Shown: positions 3,203 through 64,000 of the stretch, piece by piece | How the letters are laid out: each line of letters starts with the position of its first letter | Numbering within the stretch: position 1 is the stretch's first letter | Source of the DNA: an uncultured Planctomycetia bacterium | Lineage (GTDB): Bacteria; Omnitrophota; Gorgyraeia; CAYWPX01 | Length of the DNA stretch: 64,000 bases | Assembly: GCA_964460615.1 (NCBI GenBank) | Contig: CAYWPX010000001.1 | Coordinates: 120,073-184,072, forward strand | Direction of reading: 5' to 3' | Position numbers and translations under genes: made by a program | The notes under the pieces: generated by a model | Seen by the model: only the letters and a program-made list of their open reading frames with translations | Database searches by the model: none | Told to the model about the DNA's origin: nothing

Positions 3203-4909
3203 ATGATTATATTAGGAGTTGGAACACCTTTTTCGCATGACCCAGGAGCAGCGCTTTTGATCGATGGTGAGTTGATAGCCGCGGCTGATGAAGAGCGTTT
3301 TTCCAGGAATAAACACGCCATAAACGAATTCCCTGTTAAATCCATAAAATTTTGTCTCGCCAAAGCCGGCATCAAAGCAAGCGATGTTGAGATAGTGGCA
3401 TATCCCTGGAGCTATGCTGCCTACGAAGGAAAGATGTGGGATTTTTTTAAAAGAACCTGGTTAAGCAGGCCGAGCGATGCTTTTAAGTCTATTATAAAGG
3501 CTAAATCAAGGCATAAAGATAAGATTAAAAGACTGAATAATATCCTTTCCAGTTCAGGTATAAATCCCGATAAAGTAAAAAAATATTTTGTAGAACACCA
3601 CTTGGCGCATGCTTCAAGCGCTTACCATCTTTCGGGATTCAAGGATTCGGCTATTATGACCATGGATGCTGCCGGCGAATTTACATCAACGATGTTTGCC
3701 GAGGGTAAAGAAGGAAAGATAGCTAAAATTAAAGAATTTATATATCCGGACTCATTGGGGATGTTTTATTCGGTAGTTACAGAATATCTCGGTTTTGAGA
3801 TCAATGACGGGGAATATAAAGTAATGGGTATGGCGCCTTACGGCAATCCTGAAAAAGTGGATTTCAGTGATGTTATTAAATTTGATAAATCTGCTTACCA
3901 TGTGAATGATTTATTCACCTATTCAAGAAAAAGACATCGATATGAATCCGGCAAAATGTTCTCCAAACACATGGTCAAGATGTGGGGCCCGCCAAGGACC
4001 GGTGATGGGCTTACGGAGCCGTATATCCATATTGCTGCAGCTACTCAGAAAACTCTTGAGGATGTAACACTAGGCCTTATTGATACATATCTTGGCGATA
4101 TTCTTAAGAAGAATGGCGGGAATCTCTCTTTTGCAGGAGGTTGCGCTTTAAATGTAAGTCTGAACAGAAAACTCCTTGGCCATCCGCTTATAAAACATCT
4201 ATACGTTCAGCCTGCTTCAAGCGATGCCGGCACTCCTCTAGGGGCGGCTACATATGTAGCAAGCGAACTCGGAGAAAAGCTTAAGCCAATGACTCATGTA
4301 TACCTTGGCCCCAGCTACACAAATGATGAGATAAAAAAAGAGCTTGATAAGATAAAAGTAAAATATACCTATCACGAAGATATAGAAGAGGTAACCGCCC
4401 AGCTGCTTAGCCAGGGCCAGATAGTAGCATGGTTCCAGGGGGAGATGGAGTATGGCCCAAGAGCCCTTGGCAATCGTTCTATACTGGGGAATCCTACAAC
4501 CAAAGGCGTAAGTGACAGGATCAATGAGATAATAAAGTTCCGTGAGAACTGGAGGCCTTTCTGTCCGTCAATGCTTCCTGAATACGCAAAAGAGATCCTT
4601 GATTCGGATCATCCGGCACTTCACATGACTTTAAGCTTTAAGATAAGCGATAAATGGAAATCAAAGATACCCGAAGCGGTGCATGTAGACGGCACAATAA
4701 GACCGCAGGTGGTAGACCCTAAAACAAATCCCAAATACTACAAGCTTTTAAGCATCTTCAATAAAAAAACAGGAATACCTGTATTAATAAATACATCTTT
4801 GAATAGACGCGGCGAGCCAATGGTATGCTCCCCCAAGGATGCGATCAATATGTTCTATGGAAGCGGTTTAGAGAACCTGGTAATGGGTAATTATTTATTG
4901 AGGAAATAG
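3203..4909 (+). CDS. carbamoyltransferase, NodU/CmcH family (paralog 2)
   Basis: N-terminus MIILGVGTPFSHDPGAALLIDGE aligns with paralog 1; last ~315 aa identical to paralog 1. ORF track starts at GTG 3185; ATG 3203 chosen by alignment with paralog 1. Confidence 0.85.
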   Translation: MIILGVGTPFSHDPGAALLIDGELIAAADEERFSRNKHAINEFPVKSIKFCLAKAGIKASDVEIVAYPWSYAAYEGKMWDFFKRTWLSRPSDAFKSIIKAKSRHKDKIKRLNNILSSSGINPDKVKKYFVEHHLAHASSAYHLSGFKDSAIMTMDAAGEFTSTMFAEGKEGKIAKIKEFIYPDSLGMFYSVVTEYLGFEINDGEYKVMGMAPYGNPEKVDFSDVIKFDKSAYHVNDLFTYSRKRHRYESGKMFSKHMVKMWGPPRTGDGLTEPYIHIAAATQKTLEDVTLGLIDTYLGDILKKNGGNLSFAGGCALNVSLNRKLLGHPLIKHLYVQPASSDAGTPLGAATYVASELGEKLKPMTHVYLGPSYTNDEIKKELDKIKVKYTYHEDIEEVTAQLLSQGQIVAWFQGEMEYGPRALGNRSILGNPTTKGVSDRINEIIKFRENWRPFCPSMLPEYAKEILDSDHPALHMTLSFKISDKWKSKIPEAVHVDGTIRPQVVDPKTNPKYYKLLSIFNKKTGIPVLINTSLNRRGEPMVCSPKDAINMFYGSGLENLVMGNYLLRK

Positions 4910-27348: not shown

Positions 27349-27377
27349 AGGGTCAAGGGTTAAGGGATAAGCGGATA
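27349..27377 (+). repeat. heptad array (GGGTYAA-type) between the two ABC ATPase genes
   Basis: AGGGTCA AGGGTTA AGGGATA AGCGGATA; related TAGGGATAAGGGTTAG at about 61700. Confidence 0.6.
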
Positions 27378-41759: not shown

Positions 41760-42929
41760 ATGAAAAAAGTTGTTCTAGCATATTCAGGGGGCCTTGATAC
41801 TTCCTGTGCGGTAAAATGGCTGAAGGATAGAGATTATTTCGTTATCTGCTATATGGCTGATGTCGGTCAGGGCGGTAATTTTAATGAGATAAAAAAACGT
41901 GCTTTTGCCGCGGGCGCTGATAAGGTAGTGATAGAGAGTTTGCAAAAAGAGTTTGTAGAGGATTTTGCGTTCGTTTCTTTAAAAGCTGGGGCAGTATATG
42001 AATCCAAGTATTTTTTGGCGACTGCGCTTTCGAGGCCTCTTATAGGTAAAGGCTTAGTGAATGTTGCCAGAAAAGAAAAAGCTCAGGCGGTATCTCATGG
42101 ATGCACCGGGAAAGGTAATGACCAGGTAAGGATCGAGACGTCCGTCATGTCTTTGGGCGGGGACCTTGAGATAATTGCTCCCGTACGAGTGTGGGAATTT
42201 AAGACCAGAAATGAAGAGATAGATTATGCGAAAAAACAGAATATCCCGATAGATGTGACCAAAAAAAGCCCATATAGTTTAGATAAGAACCTATGGGGAG
42301 TCAGTATCGAGTGCGGTATCTTAGAAGACCCTATGGTGGAACCTCCTAAGGATGCCTATCAATGGACAAATGACCCCAAAGACGCTCCCAATAAAGAGAC
42401 TTATATTGAAGTTACTTTTGAAAAAGGCATACCTATTAAGGTCAATGGTAAATCGCTTGAACCGGTCCAGTTGGTTGAAAAGCTTAATGAGATCGGCGGG
42501 CTTAATGGTGTAGGCAGATGTGACCTCGTAGAGAACAGGCTTGTAGGAATAAAATCCAGAGAGATCTATGAAGCCCCGGCTGCATATATTCTTCACACGG
42601 CATACGAAGCATTGGAGAATCTGGTTTTAGACAGAGAGACTTTTCATTTTAAAAAGAGTTTATCTTTAAAATATGCCGAGATGGTTTATTTTGGCCTGTG
42701 GTTTACACCGCTAAAAAGCGCCTTGGACAAATTTTTTGATGAAGTTGCTAAAAAGATTAGCGGAACTACAAGGCTCAAGCTGTATAAAGGAACGTGTGCT
42801 ATCGTAGGCAGGACTTCACCGAATTCACTTTATAAAAAAGATCTTGCTACTTATGACGAAGGCGATAAGTTTGACCAGTCATTTGCCGAAGGTTTTATAA
42901 GGATATGGGGATTGCCGTATAAGAAATAG
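41760..42929 (+). CDS. argG: argininosuccinate synthase
   Basis: AYSGGLDTS PP-loop; start at ATG 41760 (track 41721). Confidence 0.9.
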   Translation: MKKVVLAYSGGLDTSCAVKWLKDRDYFVICYMADVGQGGNFNEIKKRAFAAGADKVVIESLQKEFVEDFAFVSLKAGAVYESKYFLATALSRPLIGKGLVNVARKEKAQAVSHGCTGKGNDQVRIETSVMSLGGDLEIIAPVRVWEFKTRNEEIDYAKKQNIPIDVTKKSPYSLDKNLWGVSIECGILEDPMVEPPKDAYQWTNDPKDAPNKETYIEVTFEKGIPIKVNGKSLEPVQLVEKLNEIGGLNGVGRCDLVENRLVGIKSREIYEAPAAYILHTAYEALENLVLDRETFHFKKSLSLKYAEMVYFGLWFTPLKSALDKFFDEVAKKISGTTRLKLYKGTCAIVGRTSPNSLYKKDLATYDEGDKFDQSFAEGFIRIWGLPYKK

Positions 42930-42957
42930 TTCATGGTTCATGGCTCATAGTTCATAG
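42928..42957 (+). repeat. heptad array (GTTCATG-type) overlapping the argG stop codon
   Basis: GTTCATG GTTCATG GCTCATA GTTCATA. Confidence 0.7.
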
Positions 42958-43009
42958 TTTAAAAGAACTGTGGCCAAGCGCCTGGAGCAAAACGCGGGAG
43001 AAAAAATTT

Positions 43010-48241: not shown

Positions 48242-48245
48242 ATTT

Positions 48246-48292
48246 AGCTCATAGTTCATAGCTCATAGCTGATGGCTGCGAGCTGAAAGCTT
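48246..48292 (+). repeat. heptad array pair between dapB and dapL
   Basis: AGCTCAT AGTTCAT AGCTCAT AGCTGAT GGCTGCG AGCTGAA AGCTT, ending 11 nt before ATG 48304. Confidence 0.7.
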
Positions 48293-50801: not shown

Positions 50802-50815
50802 ATTGAAAGGAAAAT

Positions 50816-51175
50816 ATGTTAAGGATCGTATGTAAATCTAAAATTCATCTATGCCGCGTGACTAAGGCAAATATCAGATATATGGGATCAATTACTATTG
50901 ATGAGGCCCTTCTTGAGGCTTCAGATATATTGCCCAATGAAAGGGTCCAGATCGTAAATCTAAATAATGGTTCCAGGATCGAGACCTACGCCTTGAAGGG
51001 CAAAAGAAATTCTGGCGTCATCTGCATGAATGGCGGGGCGGCGTTGTGGGCGGATGTAGGGGATGAGCTTATTGTAATTGCCTATGGGCTTATGAATGAC
51101 GAAGAAGCCCGAAAAGGAAAACCAAAAGTAGTTTTTGTGGACAGTAAAAATAAGATCAAAAGGATAAAAAAATAG
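50816..51175 (+). CDS. panD: aspartate 1-decarboxylase
   Basis: KSKIHLCRVTKANIRYMGSITID with the Gly-Ser self-processing site. Confidence 0.9.
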   Translation: MLRIVCKSKIHLCRVTKANIRYMGSITIDEALLEASDILPNERVQIVNLNNGSRIETYALKGKRNSGVICMNGGAALWADVGDELIVIAYGLMNDEEARKGKPKVVFVDSKNKIKRIKK

Positions 51176-54323: not shown

Positions 54324-54491
54324 AGCACAAGAACACATGAGCACAAGACACAGGAGTACAAGTACACAAGATCACTCGTCGCAAGTTTAAAGCTTTTACC
54401 GGTGCTCTTGTGACTGGTGCTCTGGTGACAGCAACGTTGGAGCCCTGGTGTCCTAATTATGCTGATAGCTGATTTCTGAAAACTGAAAGCT
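54324..54491 (+). repeat. composite intergenic array: 8-nt CACAAG-type units, partly complementary GGTGCTC units, then GCTGAWA heptads abutting the start codon
   Basis: AGCACAAG AACACATG AGCACAAG ACACAGG AGTACAAG TACACAAG; GGTGCTC TTGTGAC TGGTGCT CTGGTGA; GCTGATA GCTGATT TCTGAAA ACTGAAA GCT. Confidence 0.7.
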
Positions 54492-54496
54492 AAAAA

Positions 54497-55648
54497 ATGG
54501 ATAAAGTTAGACTTATTGCTACATCGACATTCGGGCTGGAAGCTATGGTTAAGCGTGAGCTTAGCAATCTCGGCTTTTATGACACGACCGGTGCTGATGG
54601 AAGAGTGGAATTCGACGCTAACTTAGCTGATATCCCGCGTTTAAATATAAATCTAAGAACTGCCGATAGAGTACTCTTAAAAATAGGTGAATTTAAAGCA
54701 TTTGATTTCGGCGAGCTTTTTGACGGGACAAAGGTACTTCCCTGGGAAGATTGGATACCTAAGGACGGTAAGATAAATGTCAGCGGTAAATGTGTCAAAT
54801 CTACTCTAATGAGTGTGCGCAGCTGTCAGTCGATAGTCAAAAAAGCTATTGTCGATAGATTAAAAGATAAATTAAAGACTGATTTGCTTCCTGAGTCTGG
54901 CCTGGAGTTTGGTATTCAGGTAGCAATGCTGAAGGATGCGGCTTTACTTACGCTAGATACTTCCGGAGCAGGGTTACACAAACGCGGCTATCGAACAGAA
55001 TCCGGTGAAGTTCCTATGCGAGAAAATCTTGCAGCTGCACTTGTAATGCTAAGTTCCTGGAAAAAAGATAAATTGCTCATAGATCCTATGTGCGGCTCAG
55101 GGACCATCCTCATAGAAGCCGCTATGATAGCCCGGAATATTGCTCCCGGATTAAAGCGTAAATTTGCCTCCGAGGATTGGCCTAAGATTGAAAAAAAGTA
55201 TTGGGACGAGGCGCGTAAGGCCGCTCGAGAGGCCATTAAGACCGAGGGGGTTTTAAATATTCTAGGTTTCGATATAGATCCGGATAGGATAAGGGATTGT
55301 AAGATTAACGCCAAAAATGCCGGAGTAGATAAGGACATAGTTTTTGAGGAAAAAGATATCAGAGAACTAAGGATAGATAAGCCGTCCGGCTATATTATCT
55401 CCAATCCTCCGTATGGTGTTGAGATGGGGACATTAAAAGAGTTGACGCATTTATATATCCTGATCCACAATATGTTTCGAAAGAAACTCGGCTGGGCAGT
55501 TTATATAATAACCGCAGATAAAAGATTTCCGGATTTTTTTAAACGCGCTAAACCTGACAGGGTAAGGAAGCTATTTAACGGTGGCCTGGAGGTAAATTAT
55601 TATCAGTATTTTGCAAAAGAGATAGAAAAGAAGGCAACTAGCTCATAG
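54497..55648 (+). CDS. THUMP-domain class I SAM-dependent RNA methyltransferase (RlmL/COG0116-like)
   Basis: N-terminal THUMP-like region; methyltransferase motifs IDPMCGSGT and ISNPPYG. Confidence 0.8.
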   Translation: MDKVRLIATSTFGLEAMVKRELSNLGFYDTTGADGRVEFDANLADIPRLNINLRTADRVLLKIGEFKAFDFGELFDGTKVLPWEDWIPKDGKINVSGKCVKSTLMSVRSCQSIVKKAIVDRLKDKLKTDLLPESGLEFGIQVAMLKDAALLTLDTSGAGLHKRGYRTESGEVPMRENLAAALVMLSSWKKDKLLIDPMCGSGTILIEAAMIARNIAPGLKRKFASEDWPKIEKKYWDEARKAAREAIKTEGVLNILGFDIDPDRIRDCKINAKNAGVDKDIVFEEKDIRELRIDKPSGYIISNPPYGVEMGTLKELTHLYILIHNMFRKKLGWAVYIITADKRFPDFFKRAKPDRVRKLFNGGLEVNYYQYFAKEIEKKATSS

Positions 55649-55711
55649 CTCATTGCTCATAGTTCATAGTAAAAGCAATAACTGAAAGCTGATAGCTGAT
55701 AGCTGAAAGCT
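55640..55711 (+). repeat. heptad array pair: (AGCTCAT)x4 overlapping the stop codon, spacer, (GCTGAWA)x4
   Basis: AGCTCAT AGCTCAT TGCTCAT AGTTCAT ...17 nt... ACTGAAA GCTGATA GCTGATA GCTGAAA GCT. Confidence 0.75.
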
Positions 55712-55986: not shown

Positions 55987-55991
55987 GAGAA

Positions 55992-56064
55992 TGGCTCATG
56001 GTTCATAGCTCATTGCTCATAGTAAAAGCAAGAACTGAAGACTGTGAGCTGAAAGCTGAAAGCT
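55992..56064 (+). repeat. heptad array pair (GCTCAT-type then GCTGAA-type)
   Basis: GGCTCAT GGTTCAT AGCTCAT TGCTCAT ... GAGCTGAA AGCTGAA AGCT, ending 8 nt before ATG 56073. Confidence 0.75.
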
Positions 56065-56072
56065 AAAAAATA

Positions 56073-56765
56073 ATGACTAAAGAAATTCTATCCAAAGATA
56101 TACCAGCACCGAAGCTTATCAGATCCCGAAGGCGAAGCATCGCCTTGGAAGTCAGGCATGACGGCACCCTTGTAGTGAGGGCGCCGCATTTTCTTCCGGA
56201 TGCCCAAATACGAGAGTTTATTAGTAAGAGGCGCGCTTGGATAGATAATGTTTATAATCGTACACGTGAGAAGTTGCAATTATTTAAACCTAAGCAATTT
56301 GTTAATGGTGAGAAATTTCTTTATCTAGGCAATGAGTATACTCTGCATATAACCCAGGATATGGACGGTAAGTTTCTTTTTGAAAACCAATTTATACTTA
56401 ATGAACGGTATATAGCTAAAGCAAAAATACTCTTTGAGCGTTGGTATAGACAAGAGGCATTTATGCTTTTTACCAAAAGATGCAAATGCTATGCTCAATA
56501 TATGAGTGTAAGCTATAAAAGTATCAGTCTATCAAATGCCAAACACCGCTGGGGTTCATGCTATCCGAATGGAGGGCTTGGATTTAATTGGCGTTTAGTG
56601 ATGGCGCCGGAATGCATTATTGATTATGTAGTTGTGCATGAATTGGCGCATCTGGTTGAGGCCAATCACTCTAAACGGTTTTGGGCGCTAGTAGAAAAAA
56701 CGTTTCCAAATTATAAAGAAGCAAAGTTATGGCTAAGGGATAATCAACATAGGCTTAAGATATAA
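56073..56765 (+). CDS. YgjP-like M48-family metallopeptidase (DUF45/SprT-like, HExxH)
   Basis: HELAHLVEANHSKRFWALVE zinc motif; 230 aa. Confidence 0.8.
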   Translation: MTKEILSKDIPAPKLIRSRRRSIALEVRHDGTLVVRAPHFLPDAQIREFISKRRAWIDNVYNRTREKLQLFKPKQFVNGEKFLYLGNEYTLHITQDMDGKFLFENQFILNERYIAKAKILFERWYRQEAFMLFTKRCKCYAQYMSVSYKSISLSNAKHRWGSCYPNGGLGFNWRLVMAPECIIDYVVVHELAHLVEANHSKRFWALVEKTFPNYKEAKLWLRDNQHRLKI

Positions 56766-56880
56766 GCTCATAGCTCATGGTTCATAGCTCATACTAGAAA
56801 TAGTACGCAGTACACTGTACAAAGTACACAGTAAAAACATTACTTGTGTTCTGGTGACTGATAGCTGAAAGCTGACGACT
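56766..56880 (+). repeat. heptad arrays: (GCTCATA)x4, (AGTACAC)x5, GCTGA-type units
   Basis: GCTCATA GCTCATG GTTCATA GCTCATA; AGTACGC AGTACAC TGTACAA AGTACAC AGTAAAA; GATAGCT GAAAGCT GACGACT. Confidence 0.75.
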
Positions 56881-56912
56881 TCCGCCACAAAGCGTTGGCG
56901 GACAAGGATAGC
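56879..56912 (+). repeat. hairpin repeat element CTTCCGCCA-N8-TGGCGGACARG, copy 1
   Basis: Same ~35-nt element recurs at 59805-59839; rearranged variant at 59144-59191. Confidence 0.7.
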
Positions 56913-57105: not shown

Positions 57106-57753
57106 ATGTTCACGCATCATGGGAAAACAATGATCGACCCGAAAGATTCTGTGCTTTTACTAATTGACCATCAAAGCGGTTTATTTAATCTTGTTAAAGA
57201 TATGGAAGTTGTTGATCTGCGCAATCATGTCATAGCTCTTGCCAAGGTGGCAACTAAGCTAAATATCCCTGTTATCACTACTGCCTCAGTGCCGGAAGGG
57301 GCAAATGGGCCGGTTATTCCGGAGATTAAGGTATTTGCTCCAAACGTTAAGTACATTCCGAGGCAAGGCCAGATAAATGCGTGGGATGTGCCTCTCTTTG
57401 TAAGTGCGGTTGAAGAGACAAAGCGTAAAACCCTTATTATGACCGGCACGCTCACAAGCGTATGCCTGGCATTCCCGGCCTTATCGGCAGCGTCAGCCGG
57501 ATACAAGGTATATGCAGTTGTGGATGCATCGGGGAACTGGAGCAAGATGGCGACGGATCTCACGATAGCGCGTCTCGCTCAGGCAGGAGTTATACCTATA
57601 GATACGTTCGCTGTCATAGGCGAGCTGCAGCAGACCTGGAACCGGCCTGATGCATTGGATTATGCCGAGATATTCGGTGAAAATATAATACCAAATTACC
57701 GTTTGCTTATGGAAAGCAAAAGCAATATTCAGGAGCCTGTTTACCAAAAATAG
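57106..57753 (+). CDS. isochorismatase-family hydrolase
   Basis: LLLIDHQ motif and catalytic Cys in TGTLTSVCL; 215 aa. Confidence 0.8.
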
Positions 57754-57821: not shown

Positions 57822-57932
57822 TTCAAATTCAGGTATTTTGCCTTGTATAGGAAATCACTAAGTGCTATAATTAATCATTATAAAAGGAAACAAGCGTGAG
57901 CGAACGTAACTATAATTAGTGTTACTAGATAA

Positions 57933-57962
57933 GCAATCCCTATGGAGGGGGTTGCTTTTTTT
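57933..57962 (+). terminator. intrinsic terminator
   Basis: GCAATCCC-tatggag-GGGGTTGC followed by TTTTTTT. Confidence 0.65.
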
Positions 57963-58042
57963 GTTGGAAGGGTGATGGGGGTAGGCTTCAGGTCGCAGGT
58001 CGCCCCTCGTTTTACCCGGGGTTTACTGTGGTTGCAAGTGAA

Positions 58043-58115
58043 GATTTAAAACCTGAGACTTGCTACCGCAATCTGCGTGTGTTTCGAGCGAAGCAGAGGG
58101 ATAACCTGTGACATG
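58043..58115 (+). repeat. ~70-nt direct repeat, copy A (upstream of the DUF1559 gene)
   Basis: TTTAAA..AGACTTGCTA.C...AATC.GCG.GTGT..CGAGCGAAGCAGAGGGAT shared with 58906-58978. Confidence 0.7.
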
Positions 58116-58179
58116 TAACATAATAACTGATGGCTAATGACTGATAGGAAAATTATCAGAGTAAATTTAAAAGAATATT

Positions 58180-58878
58180 ATGAATAAAAACAATTCTTTA
58201 AAAGGATTTACTTTATTAGAACTTTTGGTTGTTATTGTTGTTATTGGTGTCTTGGCAGGGCTTCTTCTCCCCGTTATGAGCGGAGTCAGGGAGCAGGGTA
58301 GGCGTATTACTTGTCTCAACAATCTTCGCCAGCAAGGTATTGCATGGTATATGTATCTTGATGAGCATAATGATTGTTTTCCTGCATATAGTGATCCTCC
58401 AAATGATACGCAATGTATGGAAACCACTTTTGGGGGCAAAGCCGGTGATAGTGGGTTCGCAGCTACGTCGAGACCTCTTAATCGATATCTCGGGATAAAC
58501 AATACAACTCCTGCGGACGTTTTTCATTGTCCCGACGATATAAAAGCAGCTCAAGGCCAGAGCAGAACAGTCTTCGATGTTTTTGGGAACTCATATTATA
58601 TTAACCCATGCATTTTACTTTATGGGGTGACGGATAGAAGGCCCTTGGCTTCAATCACCAATCCACGTAATAAGGTGTGGTTTGAGATGTGTTCTTTGGA
58701 TATGGTCCCGGGACATAGTGGAAAAGGATTTCAAGGTAATTTCACGCCAGTAATGGTGCTTTTTGTAGATGGGCATGTAAAGGGGCCGTATCTTTCTGAC
58801 AGTGAATTTGACTGGTTTGATAATCCATCAAAATCCGTATGCTGGTATCCTAATGCTACAGAGGATCCTCTTGATTAG
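58180..58878 (+). CDS. prepilin-type N-terminal cleavage/methylation domain protein, DUF1559 (H-X9-DG) family
   Basis: KGFTLLELLVVIVVIG prepilin leader, conserved CxNNLRQ region, C-terminal LFVDGHV. Confidence 0.85.
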   Translation: MNKNNSLKGFTLLELLVVIVVIGVLAGLLLPVMSGVREQGRRITCLNNLRQQGIAWYMYLDEHNDCFPAYSDPPNDTQCMETTFGGKAGDSGFAATSRPLNRYLGINNTTPADVFHCPDDIKAAQGQSRTVFDVFGNSYYINPCILLYGVTDRRPLASITNPRNKVWFEMCSLDMVPGHSGKGFQGNFTPVMVLFVDGHVKGPYLSDSEFDWFDNPSKSVCWYPNATEDPLD

Positions 58879-58905
58879 GAGAGTAGGGTTTTATATTGCT
58901 AGTAA

Positions 58906-58978
58906 AATTTAAACTTAAGACTTGCTATCTGTAATCAGCGGGTGTCCCGAGCGAAGCAGAGGGATGGCATGGAACAGG
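58906..58978 (+). repeat. ~70-nt direct repeat, copy B (downstream of the DUF1559 gene)
   Basis: About 80% identical to 58043-58115 in the same orientation. Confidence 0.7.
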
Positions 58979-59034
58979 AGTTTTGAAAGCTGATTTTAAA
59001 AATAGTTATCTATCCTGTCAAATTCGTAAAATTT

Positions 59035-59082
59035 AGATATAACTTATTTTAAATCAAATATTATACAGTGGTGCCAGGCACC
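59035..59082 (+). repeat. conserved upstream element ending in palindrome GGTGCC-A-GGCACC, copy 1
   Basis: AGATATAACTTATTTTAAATCAAATA..TTATA..GTGGTGCCAGGCACC; near-identical at 61088-61136, partial at 63202-63239. Confidence 0.75.
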
Positions 59083-59143
59083 AGAAAAAGTACTGGAGCT
59101 CGTGATCGTACTGATAACTCCAGCTACAAAGCTTCGACATAAA

Positions 59144-59191
59144 CCATTGGCGGATAAAGTTGGCGGGCAAGGATAGCTGATCGCTGATAGG
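59144..59191 (+). repeat. variant of the CCGCCA/TGGCGG element fused to GCTGATA heptads, ending at the SD
   Basis: ACCATTGGCGGATAAAGTTGGCGGGCAAGGATAGCTGATCGCTGATAGG; left arm inverted relative to the copies at 56879 and 59805. Confidence 0.6.
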
Positions 59192-59200
59192 AGGAAAACC

Positions 59201-59788
59201 ATGAAAGTAATAGCATTTAACGGCAGCTCGCGAAAAGAAGGTAATACTGCAATTCTAATTAAGCTTGTGCTTAAGGAATTAGAGAAAGATGGTATCAAGA
59301 CTGAACTAGTGGAATTGGCCGGTGAAAAAATTCAAGGTTGCATTGCCTGTTACAAATGTGTTGCCAACAAAGATAAAAAATGCGCCATAAATGACGACAT
59401 AGTTAACGAGTGTATAGATAAAATGGATAAGGCGGATGGTATTATCATAGGTTCCCCTACATATTTTGCTGATTGCACTTCACAGACAAAGGCGCTTATT
59501 GAACGGGCTGGGTTTGTATCGAGAGCAAATGGAGGTATGTTTAAGCGTAAAATAGGTGCCGCAGTTGTATCTGTGAGGCGAGCTGGGGCGATACATGCTT
59601 TTAATAGTATAAATCACTTTTTTACAATAGGTGAGATGATAATAGTCGGGTCTAGCTACTGGAATATAGGTATAGGTAGAGAAATCGGCGATGTGGAAAA
59701 AGACGAAGAAGGTTTAAAGGTAATGAGTACACTTGGGAAGAATATGGCGTGGTTACTTAAGAAGATAGCTCCAGGCTCTGGGCTCTAG
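59201..59788 (+). CDS. flavodoxin-like NADPH-dependent FMN reductase / iron-sulfur flavoprotein family
   Basis: MKVIAFNGSSRKEGNT, GSPTYF flavin-binding motifs; Cys cluster CIACYKC...C; GGAGGA SD. Confidence 0.8.
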   Translation: MKVIAFNGSSRKEGNTAILIKLVLKELEKDGIKTELVELAGEKIQGCIACYKCVANKDKKCAINDDIVNECIDKMDKADGIIIGSPTYFADCTSQTKALIERAGFVSRANGGMFKRKIGAAVVSVRRAGAIHAFNSINHFFTIGEMIIVGSSYWNIGIGREIGDVEKDEEGLKVMSTLGKNMAWLLKKIAPGSGL

Positions 59789-59804: not shown

Positions 59805-59839
59805 TTCCGCCACAAAGCGTTGGCGGACAGGCATGGCGC
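59805..59839 (+). repeat. hairpin repeat element CTTCCGCCA-N8-TGGCGGACAGG, copy 2
   Basis: Same element as 56879-56912. Confidence 0.7.
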
Positions 59840-61046: not shown

Positions 61047-61087
61047 CAGGAGAGAGAGTGTAGTTCCTATTAAATTCTTGAAAATTA

Positions 61088-61136
61088 AGATATAACTTAT
61101 TTTAAATCAAATAGTTATAACGTGGTGCCTGGCACC
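61088..61136 (+). repeat. conserved upstream element ending in palindrome GGTGCC-T-GGCACC, copy 2
   Basis: About 45/49 identical to 59035-59082; its 3' end runs into the LamG reading frame. Confidence 0.75.
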
Positions 61137-61639
61137 GTAAAGGCACAGGAGAGACGGTAGGAAGATTTTATACTAGCTCTGGAGTCTCGTTAGTTGAAGG
61201 AGAGTGGTATAATCTTGCTTTTACTAGAAATTACAATACTTCCTCTATCTTAATTGACGGGGTTTCACTGCCCACAATTCAGCCCATAGATTGGGCCAGT
61301 AATATGGAAATTCTAACATCGCCAGTTTATTTGGGCAGTGCCGCAACAGCACCAGGATATGGATTAAGAGGATACTTAGACAATTTACAGATTTGGAATT
61401 ATGCGCGAACTGAGCAGCAATTAAAGGATTCCATTACTAATTTACCGAATGGTAACGAGGAAGGCTTAATGGGGTATTGGAATTTTGATAATATTCAAAA
61501 TGGTGTTGTGCCTGACTTAACTGAATATGGTAATAATGGTTTTATTAATCCGCCTATTTCTACGCCAGAGCCTGTATCAATGCTTTTATTTGGTATCGGT
61601 GGATGGGTGTTGGCGCTATTAAGAAAAAAACGCTCATAA
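61121..61639 (+). pseudogene. LamG-like (concanavalin-type) PEP-CTERM protein, 5'-truncated fragment
   Basis: Frame open from 61121 encodes a LamG C-terminal half (EGEWYNLAFTRNYNTSSILIDGV, DNLQIWNYARTEQQL) and a PEP-CTERM tail (TPEPVSMLLFGIGGWVLALLRKKRS); no N-terminal half or signal peptide; first in-frame ATG at 61304. Confidence 0.6.
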
Positions 61640-62047: not shown

Positions 62048-62110
62048 GAAGTAAAAAACGGGTCACACCTATTTATTTGAAATTACTATAGAAAACCGGG
62101 AGGTTCAACC

Positions 62111-62296
62111 ATGCAAGACATCGCGTTAAAAGTAGCTGGATTTGTTTTTGGGTTAGTGGCTATATTACATCTTTTGAGAGTGTTATTTAAAGTAAAGTTT
62201 ACGGCAAATAATATTGTAATTCCTCTATGGCTAAGTGTAGTTGCTTCGATAGTGGCGCTGTTGCTGGCGCTTTTTATGTTCGCGTGTTTGCAATAG
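62111..62296 (+). CDS. small membrane protein, two predicted TM helices (copy 1)
   Basis: 61 aa; paralog of 63736-63924; C-terminal 24 aa identical between copies. Confidence 0.5.
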   Translation: MQDIALKVAGFVFGLVAILHLLRVLFKVKFTANNIVIPLWLSVVASIVALLLALFMFACLQ

Positions 62297-62430
62297 GGGA
62301 AGTTTGGAGTTGGCCTAGATGCCTATACCACTCCTAGTCCTCGTGGTGCTTAACGGCATCGCGGCATGAAATCGCGCATCGCTTGATTTCAGGAGTATGC
62401 GGTAACAAGTCGCAGGCCTCAGATTACATG
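62297..62430 (+). repeat. conserved GC-richer non-coding element downstream of the small membrane-protein gene
   Basis: 62279-62370 appears identical to 63909-64000 where the window ends; contains a 16-codon hydrophobic mini-ORF (MPIPLLVLVVLNGIAA). Confidence 0.6.
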
Positions 62431-62876: not shown

Positions 62877-62880
62877 AGAT

Positions 62881-63010
62881 GCTCAAGGCTCCAGGCTCTA
62901 GGGAAAAACAAAATACCGCTCCAGGTTCGGGGGTGAGTCCCCTTCGGCGAGGCTATGCTTCGCTTTGCACGGGTGAGAGGAAAACCTAGAGCTCTGAGCC
63001 TAGAGCCAAG
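62881..63010 (+). repeat. GC-rich structured intergenic element with long-range inverted repeat
   Basis: GGCTCCAGGCTCTAGGG ...~80 nt... CCTAGAGCTCTGAGCCTAGAGCC; internal GGGG-tgagt-CCCC hairpin; related motifs at 59769-59795 and 30230-30256. Confidence 0.55.
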
Positions 63011-63201
63011 AGCGGGTTTTGTGCTATATTAAATTGATGGAACAACAAAACCCTTTGTGTTATAATAAATGGTAACAGATTCGAGTAACACGGAAAGGGA
63101 ACAAGAAGCAATGGGTCTTTTTGGTAGCAAACAAAATAAAAGTATAAAGGTGAATTAATTTAAGCCGGGGATAAAATTCTCGGTTTTTTTGTTCAAAACT
63201 C

Positions 63202-63239
63202 TTTTAAATTTAAGTATTTATAAAGCGGTGCCTGGCACC
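63202..63239 (+). repeat. partial copy 3 of the GGTGCC-T-GGCACC palindrome element
   Basis: TTTTAAAT...TATTTATAAAGCGGTGCCTGGCACC, 22 nt upstream of ATG 63262. Confidence 0.6.
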
Positions 63240-63261
63240 GAAAAATTAAAAAGGAGAAAAA

Positions 63262-63651: not shown

Positions 63652-63735
63652 ATTCTAAAAATTAATTAAGCAATAAAAGTGGTGAGTAATAATAAGGGAA
63701 AAGGGGACGCTTCTATTTAAGTTGAAGGCACAACC

Positions 63736-63924
63736 ATGCAAAACCTCGCACTAAAAGTAGCTGGATGTATATTTGTTATAGTGGCTATTATGCAGCTTTT
63801 GAGAGTGCTATTTAAGGTAAAGATTGTGGTTAATGATAATATTATTGTTCCTATATGGCTTAGCGTGGTGGCTTCGATAGTGGCGTTGTTACTTGCGCTT
63901 TTTATGTTCGCGTGTTTGCAATAG
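63736..63924 (+). CDS. small membrane protein, two predicted TM helices (copy 2)
   Basis: 62 aa; paralog of 62111-62296. Confidence 0.5.
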   Translation: MQNLALKVAGCIFVIVAIMQLLRVLFKVKIVVNDNIIVPIWLSVVASIVALLLALFMFACLQ

Positions 63925-64000
63925 GGGAAGTTTGGAGTTGGCCTAGATGCCTATACCACTCCTAGTCCTCGTGGTGCTTAACGGCATCGCGGCATGAAAT

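Follow-up and report, generated by a model that had tools for sequence, protein, structure and literature searches.

A private two-copy direct repeat with a palindromic core around a prepilin-type gene of an Omnitrophota genome

In the 64-kb stretch of DNA analysed here, referred to below as the window, a prepilin-type, DUF1559-like gene is bracketed by two direct copies of an intergenic repeat of 82 nt. This repeat is an ordinary, private case of a known kind, namely a short intergenic repeat with a palindromic core. With moderate confidence we regard the pair as the lineage-private remnant of a local duplication; it lies in a plastic accessory region and carries a REP-like hairpin. Within the ~92 kb of genome that were searched, comparison of sequences does not support the repeat as a shared leader of the DUF1559 family, nor a specific link to that family.

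The repeat pair and the gene that it brackets

Copy 1 of the repeat lies upstream of the gene at positions 58032–58113, and copy 2 lies downstream of it at positions 58896–58976, both on the + strand. The copies were delimited by local alignment, MAFFT and nhmmer (E = 4e-22 for copy 1), are ~77–80% identical, and have one exact 18-mer in common. The best local alignment of intergenic against intergenic sequence pairs these two segments with a score of 41, as compared to 300 shuffles that averaged 11 and never exceeded 16. The window contains the 18-mer, CGAGCGAAGCAGAGGGAT, two times and no more (58085–58102 and 58948–58965, both on the + strand); 0.05 matches are expected by chance, and 0/100 shuffles reached two. 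The direct repeat that the preliminary description had placed around the DUF1559 gene is borne out in position and orientation, far beyond chance, and the identity of about 80% given there agrees with our measurements: over the span first described (58043–58115 and 58906–58978), 57 of 74 alignment columns are identical (77%), the differences being 10 transitions, 5 transversions and 2 one-base indels. Weaker similarity may reach back to 58019 in copy 1 and to 58886 in copy 2 (MAFFT alignment). Two blocks, of 10 nt and 18 nt, are exactly conserved between the copies; the 18-nt run is not significantly longer than expected from a random placement of the 17 differences (P = 0.08).

About 64–66 nt separate the end of copy 1 from the ATG at 58180, and copy 2 starts 17–28 nt after the stop at 58878, the start-to-start distance of the copies being 863–864 nt. 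Neither terminal inverted repeats nor target duplications were detected around either copy. No third copy and no inverted partner of the 82-nt repeat was found by nhmmer and blastn-short in the ~92 kb, which comprise the window and 28 kb of contigs from the same sequencing run. A partial reverse-complement match at 62398–62416 (E = 2.5) was dismissed as chance, as was a long-range stem between 58804–58823 and 59006–59025, of which ~0.2 such pairs are expected by chance according to our estimate.

The arrangement is not an assembly artefact, because the ENA contig L058 reproduces the copy-2 junction and the Logan contig L001 has both copies. L058, from an independent assembly (sample ERZ4216102), covers the end of the gene, copy 2 and the gene that follows, with a single SNP at 58979; L001 derives from run SRR12487046. 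All three assemblies display the same arrangement, with no excision variant and no empty site.

The gene between the copies (58180–58878, + strand) encodes a protein of 232 aa, and is described here as prepilin-type and DUF1559-like on the basis of Pfam, NCBIfam, a six-frame motif scan and the names of its homologs. The protein matches N_methyl (PF07963) with 30 bits (cutoff 21.2) and TIGR02532 with 27.7 bits (cutoff 16.3), and the prepilin cleavage/methylation motif GFTLLELLVV occupies residues 9–18. The match to DUF1559/SBP_bac_10 (PF07596) is marginal, with 26.5 bits versus 23.3, and covers profile positions 3–37 of 268 only, i.e. the N-terminal 35. The H-X9-DG C-terminal model TIGR04294 is missed with 12.8 bits versus a cutoff of 19, the protein having N-X9-DG (..GNFTPVMVLFVDGHV..) at this place. 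Homologs are named DUF1559 or H-X9-DG by NCBI and JGI; they are numerous in Omnitrophota and often lie head to tail, with 3–5 genes per array. In the six-frame motif scan, 58180–58878 is the sole open reading frame with a prepilin motif in the window.

The surrounding accessory region

The nearest relative, represented by contig L063, carries an RlmL that is 85% identical and is syntenic with the window through the lysA-to-RlmL block, and differs directly after RlmL (window from 55649 onward, L063 from 11132 onward). Because synteny ends at this point, the segment of 55.7–64 kb is considered a flexible accessory region. The genes between 54.5 and 64 kb comprise RlmL, Smr, YgjP, an isochorismatase, an FMN reductase, a PEP-CTERM fragment, PEGA and unknowns, and a Pfam scan of this part of the window revealed no integrase, transposase or recombinase among them. 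A search for an orthologous empty site came to nothing, with the synteny to L063 gone right after RlmL and isochorismatase homologs placed in unrelated contexts; close homologs of the isochorismatase (about 80–86% identical) occur in several phyla.

Upstream of copy 1, the isochorismatase gene is followed by a strong terminator; a second one, seen in the terminator scan as an intrinsic-terminator-like hairpin with a T-run at 57931–57965 (+ strand), lies 67 nt before the copy. A promoter-like box, TTGTAT-17-TGcTATAAT (57843–57871, with TGcTATAAT at 57863–57871 as read from the letters), has this terminator ~60 nt later. Box and terminator (57843–57965) would delimit a putative transcript of ~90 nt, either a small RNA or an attenuated leader. 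The segment 57899–57914 is 94% complementary to 57597–57612, within the isochorismatase gene. On the minus strand, a near-consensus sigma-70-like site at 59021–58993 (TTGACA-17-TAAAAT, 11/12 matches) points leftwards; a transcript started there would run antisense to copy 2 and the 3′ end of the DUF1559 gene.

A dispersed repeat of ~60 nt, termed D10 (...TTTAGATATAACTTATTTTAAATCAAATA..GTGGTGCCWGGCACC), lies on the + strand at 59026–59085, downstream of copy 2 and ahead of the FMN-reductase gene, which starts at 59201. D10 ends in the palindrome GGTGCCWGGCACC, and further copies are located at 61080–61138, 63190–63244 and L030:912–975. It is found upstream of several genes, namely those of the FMN reductase, the LamG/PEP-CTERM fragment, the PEGA protein and a DUF1559 paralog, and the Logan contig L001 terminates within it. 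The LamG/PEP-CTERM frame (61139–61639) is open directly after the D10 palindrome and has no start codon until 61304; the gene looks 5′-truncated, with a break point coinciding with D10. A relation of the 82-nt repeat to its neighbour D10 was considered and rejected, as alignment scores lie inside the shuffle range.

Period-7 arrays occur in many intergenic regions, GCTCATA-type arrays directly after stops and GCTGAWA-type arrays directly before starts. They were located at 27349, 30190, 33422, 34566, 41667, 42926–42959, 48245–48290, 54324–54429, 55639–55711, 55991–56068, 56765–56875, 57989–58003, 58127–58149, 59172–59192 and 62881–63013, and also in L029 and in the relative L063, where they are positionally conserved. 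These heptamer arrays resemble cyanobacterial STRR heptamer repeats, and some pairs of them form long imperfect hairpins (62877–63010, z = -2.7). Another small hairpin, TTCCGCCACAAAGCGTTGGCGGACA, is present in two intergenic regions at 56880–56905 and 59805–59830 (a 50-nt match, 84% identical), with a similar one at 59148–59170. A local duplication involving small membrane-protein genes pairs 62101–62372 with 63726–64000. Far from the repeat, two adjacent genes of ~570 aa (1621–2394 versus 3479–4252) display a 300-nt stretch of 99% identity beside a stretch of 70%, and this pattern suggests, as far as sequence can tell, recent gene conversion between tandem paralogs.

Relatives of the repeat and signals within the copies

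The preliminary description had proposed that DUF1559 genes might share the element as a 5′ leader or regulatory RNA. This is not what we find at the paralogs. The repeat is absent from the five DUF1559 paralog loci of the same sequencing run, 0/5 having it (three on L029, one each on L030 and L032; 28 kb; nhmmer --max, blastn-short). These three contigs are assigned to the genome of the window on account of the common run, a GC content of 39–41% and common repeats, an assignment that is inferred and not proven; L029 has heptamer arrays, and L030 has one D10 copy. The repeat is likewise absent from the tandem DUF1559 arrays of other Omnitrophota (L026–L028), where 8 homologs are found in two arrays, L028 repeating two genes of the L027 array. 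Within the ~92 kb searched the element is confined to this one pair, an outcome that had been named in advance as speaking against a leader, and the leader reading fails there.

Public collections gave the same picture. Exact matches to the 18-mer were obtained in GTDB representative genomes (24) and JGI metagenomes (25), none of them accompanied by the 5′ half of the repeat. A combined pattern of both halves retrieved nothing from JGI metagenomes and chance matches only from IMG/VR, so that the 5′ 45 nt of the unit have no counterpart in the collections scanned (GTDB, JGI metagenomes and IMG/VR). BLAST of plasmid and phage collections, with one copy as query in each case, returned no match. 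Rfam yielded no match at gathering score anywhere in the window; over the repeat, with E up to 10, the only match is to the bantam miRNA (16.6 bits versus a gathering score of 61, E = 9.1), which is at chance level.

Structure prediction, which the preliminary description had put forward as a check, gave a fold signal no better than that of shuffled controls. RNA folds of single copies do not surpass shuffles on either strand (z from -0.6 to +0.7; -1.7 and +0.3 when flanks are included). RNAalifold on the two copies predicts three helices with all 36 cells paired. Six substitutions fall into the predicted stems and all of them keep pairing on the + strand, one being compensatory (A-U to U-A) and four or five being wobble changes; the C/U changes opposite G allow pairing on the + strand only, and the minus-strand consensus fold is weaker. 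The second of these helices corresponds to a possible 5′ hairpin, with GACTTGC and GCAATC arms in copy 1 (58057–58073, + strand; not better than in shuffled alignments) and GACTTGC and GTAATC arms in copy 2 (58919–58936, + strand), where one G-C has become G-U. This modelled hairpin could be the reason why the AGACTTGCTA and AATC blocks are conserved.

The full pairing of the three helices, the two-sided change and the strand-specific C/U changes might be read as a structured RNA of the + strand, i.e. a 5′ leader, a 3′ UTR element or a small RNA with three helices under selection. We hold this to be very unlikely, given that the consensus energy reaches only z = -0.35 with 33% of column-shuffled alignments equally good, that single folds are insignificant, and that Rfam matches beyond chance level, terminators after the copies (terminator scan) and homologs in the collections are all lacking. 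A pair-count test has no power with two sequences.

A further reading takes the copies as shared cis-regulatory DNA, namely an operator or alternative-sigma promoter by which one factor would control both the pseudopilin gene (copy 1) and the FMN-reductase gene (copy 2). Both copies do lie upstream of + strand genes (58180 and 59201), and the 10-nt and 18-nt blocks are exactly conserved. The distances from copy to start are very unequal, however (66 versus 225 nt), the FMN-reductase gene is separated from copy 2 by the promoter-like D10 module, the blocks are spaced differently in the two copies owing to the indels, and no further sites are present in the ~92 kb, all of which renders this reading quite unlikely. 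A sigma-70 promoter inside the copies was rejected in the scan, since no hexamer pair passes on the + strand of either copy; promoter-like sites in the region number 3 versus 4.2 expected, i.e. no excess. A sigma-54 promoter by way of the TTGCT box was rejected as well, as there is no GG at -24 and the GG-N10-GC spacing is absent. A small conserved peptide is contradicted by a 1-nt indel that shifts the frame, such that the peptides differ upstream of the core.

The core hairpin family and the origin of the pair

The best-conserved part of the repeat is an exact core that forms a small hairpin, TCCC-GAGCGAAGC-AGA-GGGA (= TCCC-GA-GCGAAGC-AGA-GGGA). The core hairpin of copy 1 (58080–58103, + strand) reads TGTTTC-GAGCGAAGC-AGA-GGGATA, and that of copy 2 (58943–58966, + strand) reads TGTCCC-GAGCGAAGC-AGA-GGGATG; both contain the exact 18-mer and coincide with a helix predicted by RNAalifold (columns 50–55 with 68–73). 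In copy 1 the stem (TTC...GGG) is kept through G-U pairs only, on the + strand.

These cores fit a wider set of hairpins, which we define as GTCAT-N3-GAGCGAAGC-N2-3-N3′-ATC, i.e. a loop core with complementary arms and the 3′ arm at offset 2–3. Its loci comprise the two cores of the window, L002–L057 and L065–L184. Both copies conform to the rule for loop and arms (copy 1 via G-U), copy 2 in a canonical-like form with CCC...GGG at offset 3. The GTCAT box and the 3′ ATC are the features in which they depart from the family, as the copies read GTGT(CC/TT)C...GGGAT(G/A), which is one base less than GTCATCC and has ATG or ATA for ATC. The core thus fits most features of the family.

Elsewhere, 18/49 exact 18-mer matches have a complementary 5′ arm, and 12/18 of these also carry the TCATCC box (GTCATCC in 10, ATCATCC in 2). 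The 12 boxed sites, from Acidobacteria, Bacteroidales, Fimbriimonadales, Patescibacteria and others, read (T)GTCATCC-CGAGCGAAGCAGAG-GGATC or the close variant with ATCATCC. These sites lie at the ends of stop-free stretches or close to them, as would be the case at gene boundaries; the other matches fall within long stop-free stretches and have the appearance of chance hits. In viral contigs, GTCAT-N3-GAGCGAAGC was recorded at 127 distinct sites, 74 of which have an exactly complementary arm at offset 2–3, where chance would give ~2 per offset and permutation of arms among sites gave at most 37. The covarying arms include TGC/GCA, TCT/AGA, TCC/GGA, CCT/AGG and CCC/GGG. Judged by sequence comparison, the GAGCGAAGC family is a genuine hairpin family across many phyla and viral contigs, because its arms covary and 74/127 viral-contig sites are exactly complementary.

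Members are arranged singly, in tandem arrays of 37–45 nt (L100) or as inverted doublets. In the relative L063, the GTCAT hairpin stands as such an inverted doublet in the panC–panD spacer (L063:6856–6988), which in the window measures only 16 nt (50802–50817). As the doublet is present in L063 and absent from the window, the family comes and goes in the manner of a small mobile or REP-like element, and this polymorphism suggests that the hairpin is mobile. The strand of the hairpin relative to flanking genes has a weak bias (20 same versus 13 opposite, from crude gene calls). No recurrent enzyme or transposase was seen near family hairpins, where only phage structural genes recur. The family has no Rfam entry, and the literature searched contained no paper with the motif and nothing relevant on the motif or its spurious translations.

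Classical REPs are species-specific, occur in tens to hundreds of copies and are mobilised by RAYT transposases. Like REPs and REPINs, the cores (58080–58103 and 58943–58966) are short imperfect palindromes in extragenic DNA; such hairpins often stand just after stops, occur singly, in tandem or as inverted doublets, and are gained or lost between relatives. They differ from them in being limited to two copies in ~92 kb with no inverted partner, in the lack of a counterpart of the 5′ 45 nt of the unit in the collections scanned, in the spread of the hairpin family over many phyla, and in that no RAYT gene was seen.

These likenesses bear on the possibility of a dispersed REP- or MITE-like family, with the 82-nt unit in several or many copies outside the ~92 kb searched, a trans-acting enzyme, and two independent insertions at this locus. 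The presence/absence polymorphism of the core hairpin family between relatives, its occurrence in many phyla and viral contigs, and the richness of this genome in other dispersed intergenic modules (D10, heptamer arrays) would be in line with it. Nevertheless, we consider it unlikely: the same DNA that holds four D10 copies holds no third copy of the repeat, the 5′ half of the repeat is found nowhere else in the collections scanned, and neither terminal inverted repeats or target duplications nor a transposase recurring near family hairpins were detected.

One gene bracketed by direct, hairpin-containing repeats with no inverted terminal repeats also brings a mobilisable or excisable single-gene cassette to mind, of IS200/IS605 (PATE-like) or attC-like type, by which the pseudopilin gene could be moved or looped out. 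Such a layout is known from IS200/IS605 ends and from the cassettes of chromosomal integrons. With Vibrio-type integron cassettes (VCR/attC) the pair has in common direct repeats of ~70–120 nt, ~80% identical, around one small gene; it differs in the lack of attC cores, of a long imperfect palindrome, of a nearby integrase and of a cassette array. With IS200/IS605 ends and PATEs it has in common that similar hairpins lie subterminally at both ends in direct orientation, and that neither terminal inverted repeats nor a target duplication are present; here, in contrast, tnpA/tnpB are lacking, there are no other copies and no sign of movement, and the similarity extends over 82 nt, whereas IS200/IS605 ends normally share the hairpin only. 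The attC sites R′′ RYYYAAC and R′ GTTRRRY are absent from both strands of 58000–58140 and 58870–59000, and no strong palindrome spans the copies. No integrase or transposase is found among the genes of 54.5–64 kb, nor a second cassette or array, and the three assemblies are alike with no empty site. Despite the apparent mobility of the hairpin family and the location in a flexible region, we judge the cassette highly improbable. By analogy, the copies could be functional ends of a single-gene mobile cassette whose GAGCGAAGC hairpin is recognised as ssDNA in the IS200/IS605 or attC manner, and to this more specific proposal we assign only a very slim chance.

The preliminary description had named, besides the leader, the footprint of a duplication or of cassette exchange. 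No positive sign of cassette exchange was found (attC core sites are lacking, as are a recombinase within ~5 kb and an excision variant in three assemblies), and duplication is compatible with the data and the best explanation. The two copies would be paralogous intergenic DNA from a local segmental duplication in a repeat-rich accessory region. Strong pairwise similarity combined with only two adjacent copies in the window and none in a further 28 kb argues for such an origin, as do neighbouring local duplications, several modular repeats and the variability of the region after RlmL. The differences between the copies are spread as random decay predicts (P = 0.08; 10 transitions to 5 transversions). 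As a point against duplication, the fact that all six substitutions in the modelled stems keep + strand pairing could hint at selection on RNA structure and not at neutral decay.

Two routes may be envisaged for the duplication. By the first, a unit of repeat, leader and gene would have been duplicated in tandem, followed by loss of the second gene. Because copy 2 directly follows the stop and the copies are 863–864 nt apart, repeat, leader and gene form one unit as for a tandem unit, and in the DUF1559/H-X9-DG arrays of PVC bacteria leader plus gene is a natural duplication unit, related Omnitrophota having 3–5 genes head to tail. The locus differs from these arrays in that one gene remains here and that arrays L026–L028 are devoid of the repeat. 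Downstream of copy 2 no remnant of a second gene copy is left, which leaves this route hypothetical. By the second route, a duplication of ~82–95 bp would have accompanied a rearrangement. If the copies have any activity, they would most plausibly, by analogy with REP hairpins, function as stem-loops at either boundary of the pseudopilin mRNA (5′ and 3′) and influence its stability or processing.

For the biology of such loci, this case illustrates that a repeat on both sides of a single member of a multi-copy gene family is not necessarily a leader specific to that family; it also assigns the locus to a plastic accessory region. If the cassette reading were true, the GTCAT-GAGCGAAGC family would mark an undescribed cross-phylum system shuffling accessory genes such as pseudopilins. 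Two by-products of this work are possibly worth more than the repeat itself: the covarying GAGCGAAGC hairpin family of many phyla and viral contigs, not found in Rfam or in the literature searched, and the dense heptamer arrays and modular repeats at gene boundaries in this Omnitrophota lineage.
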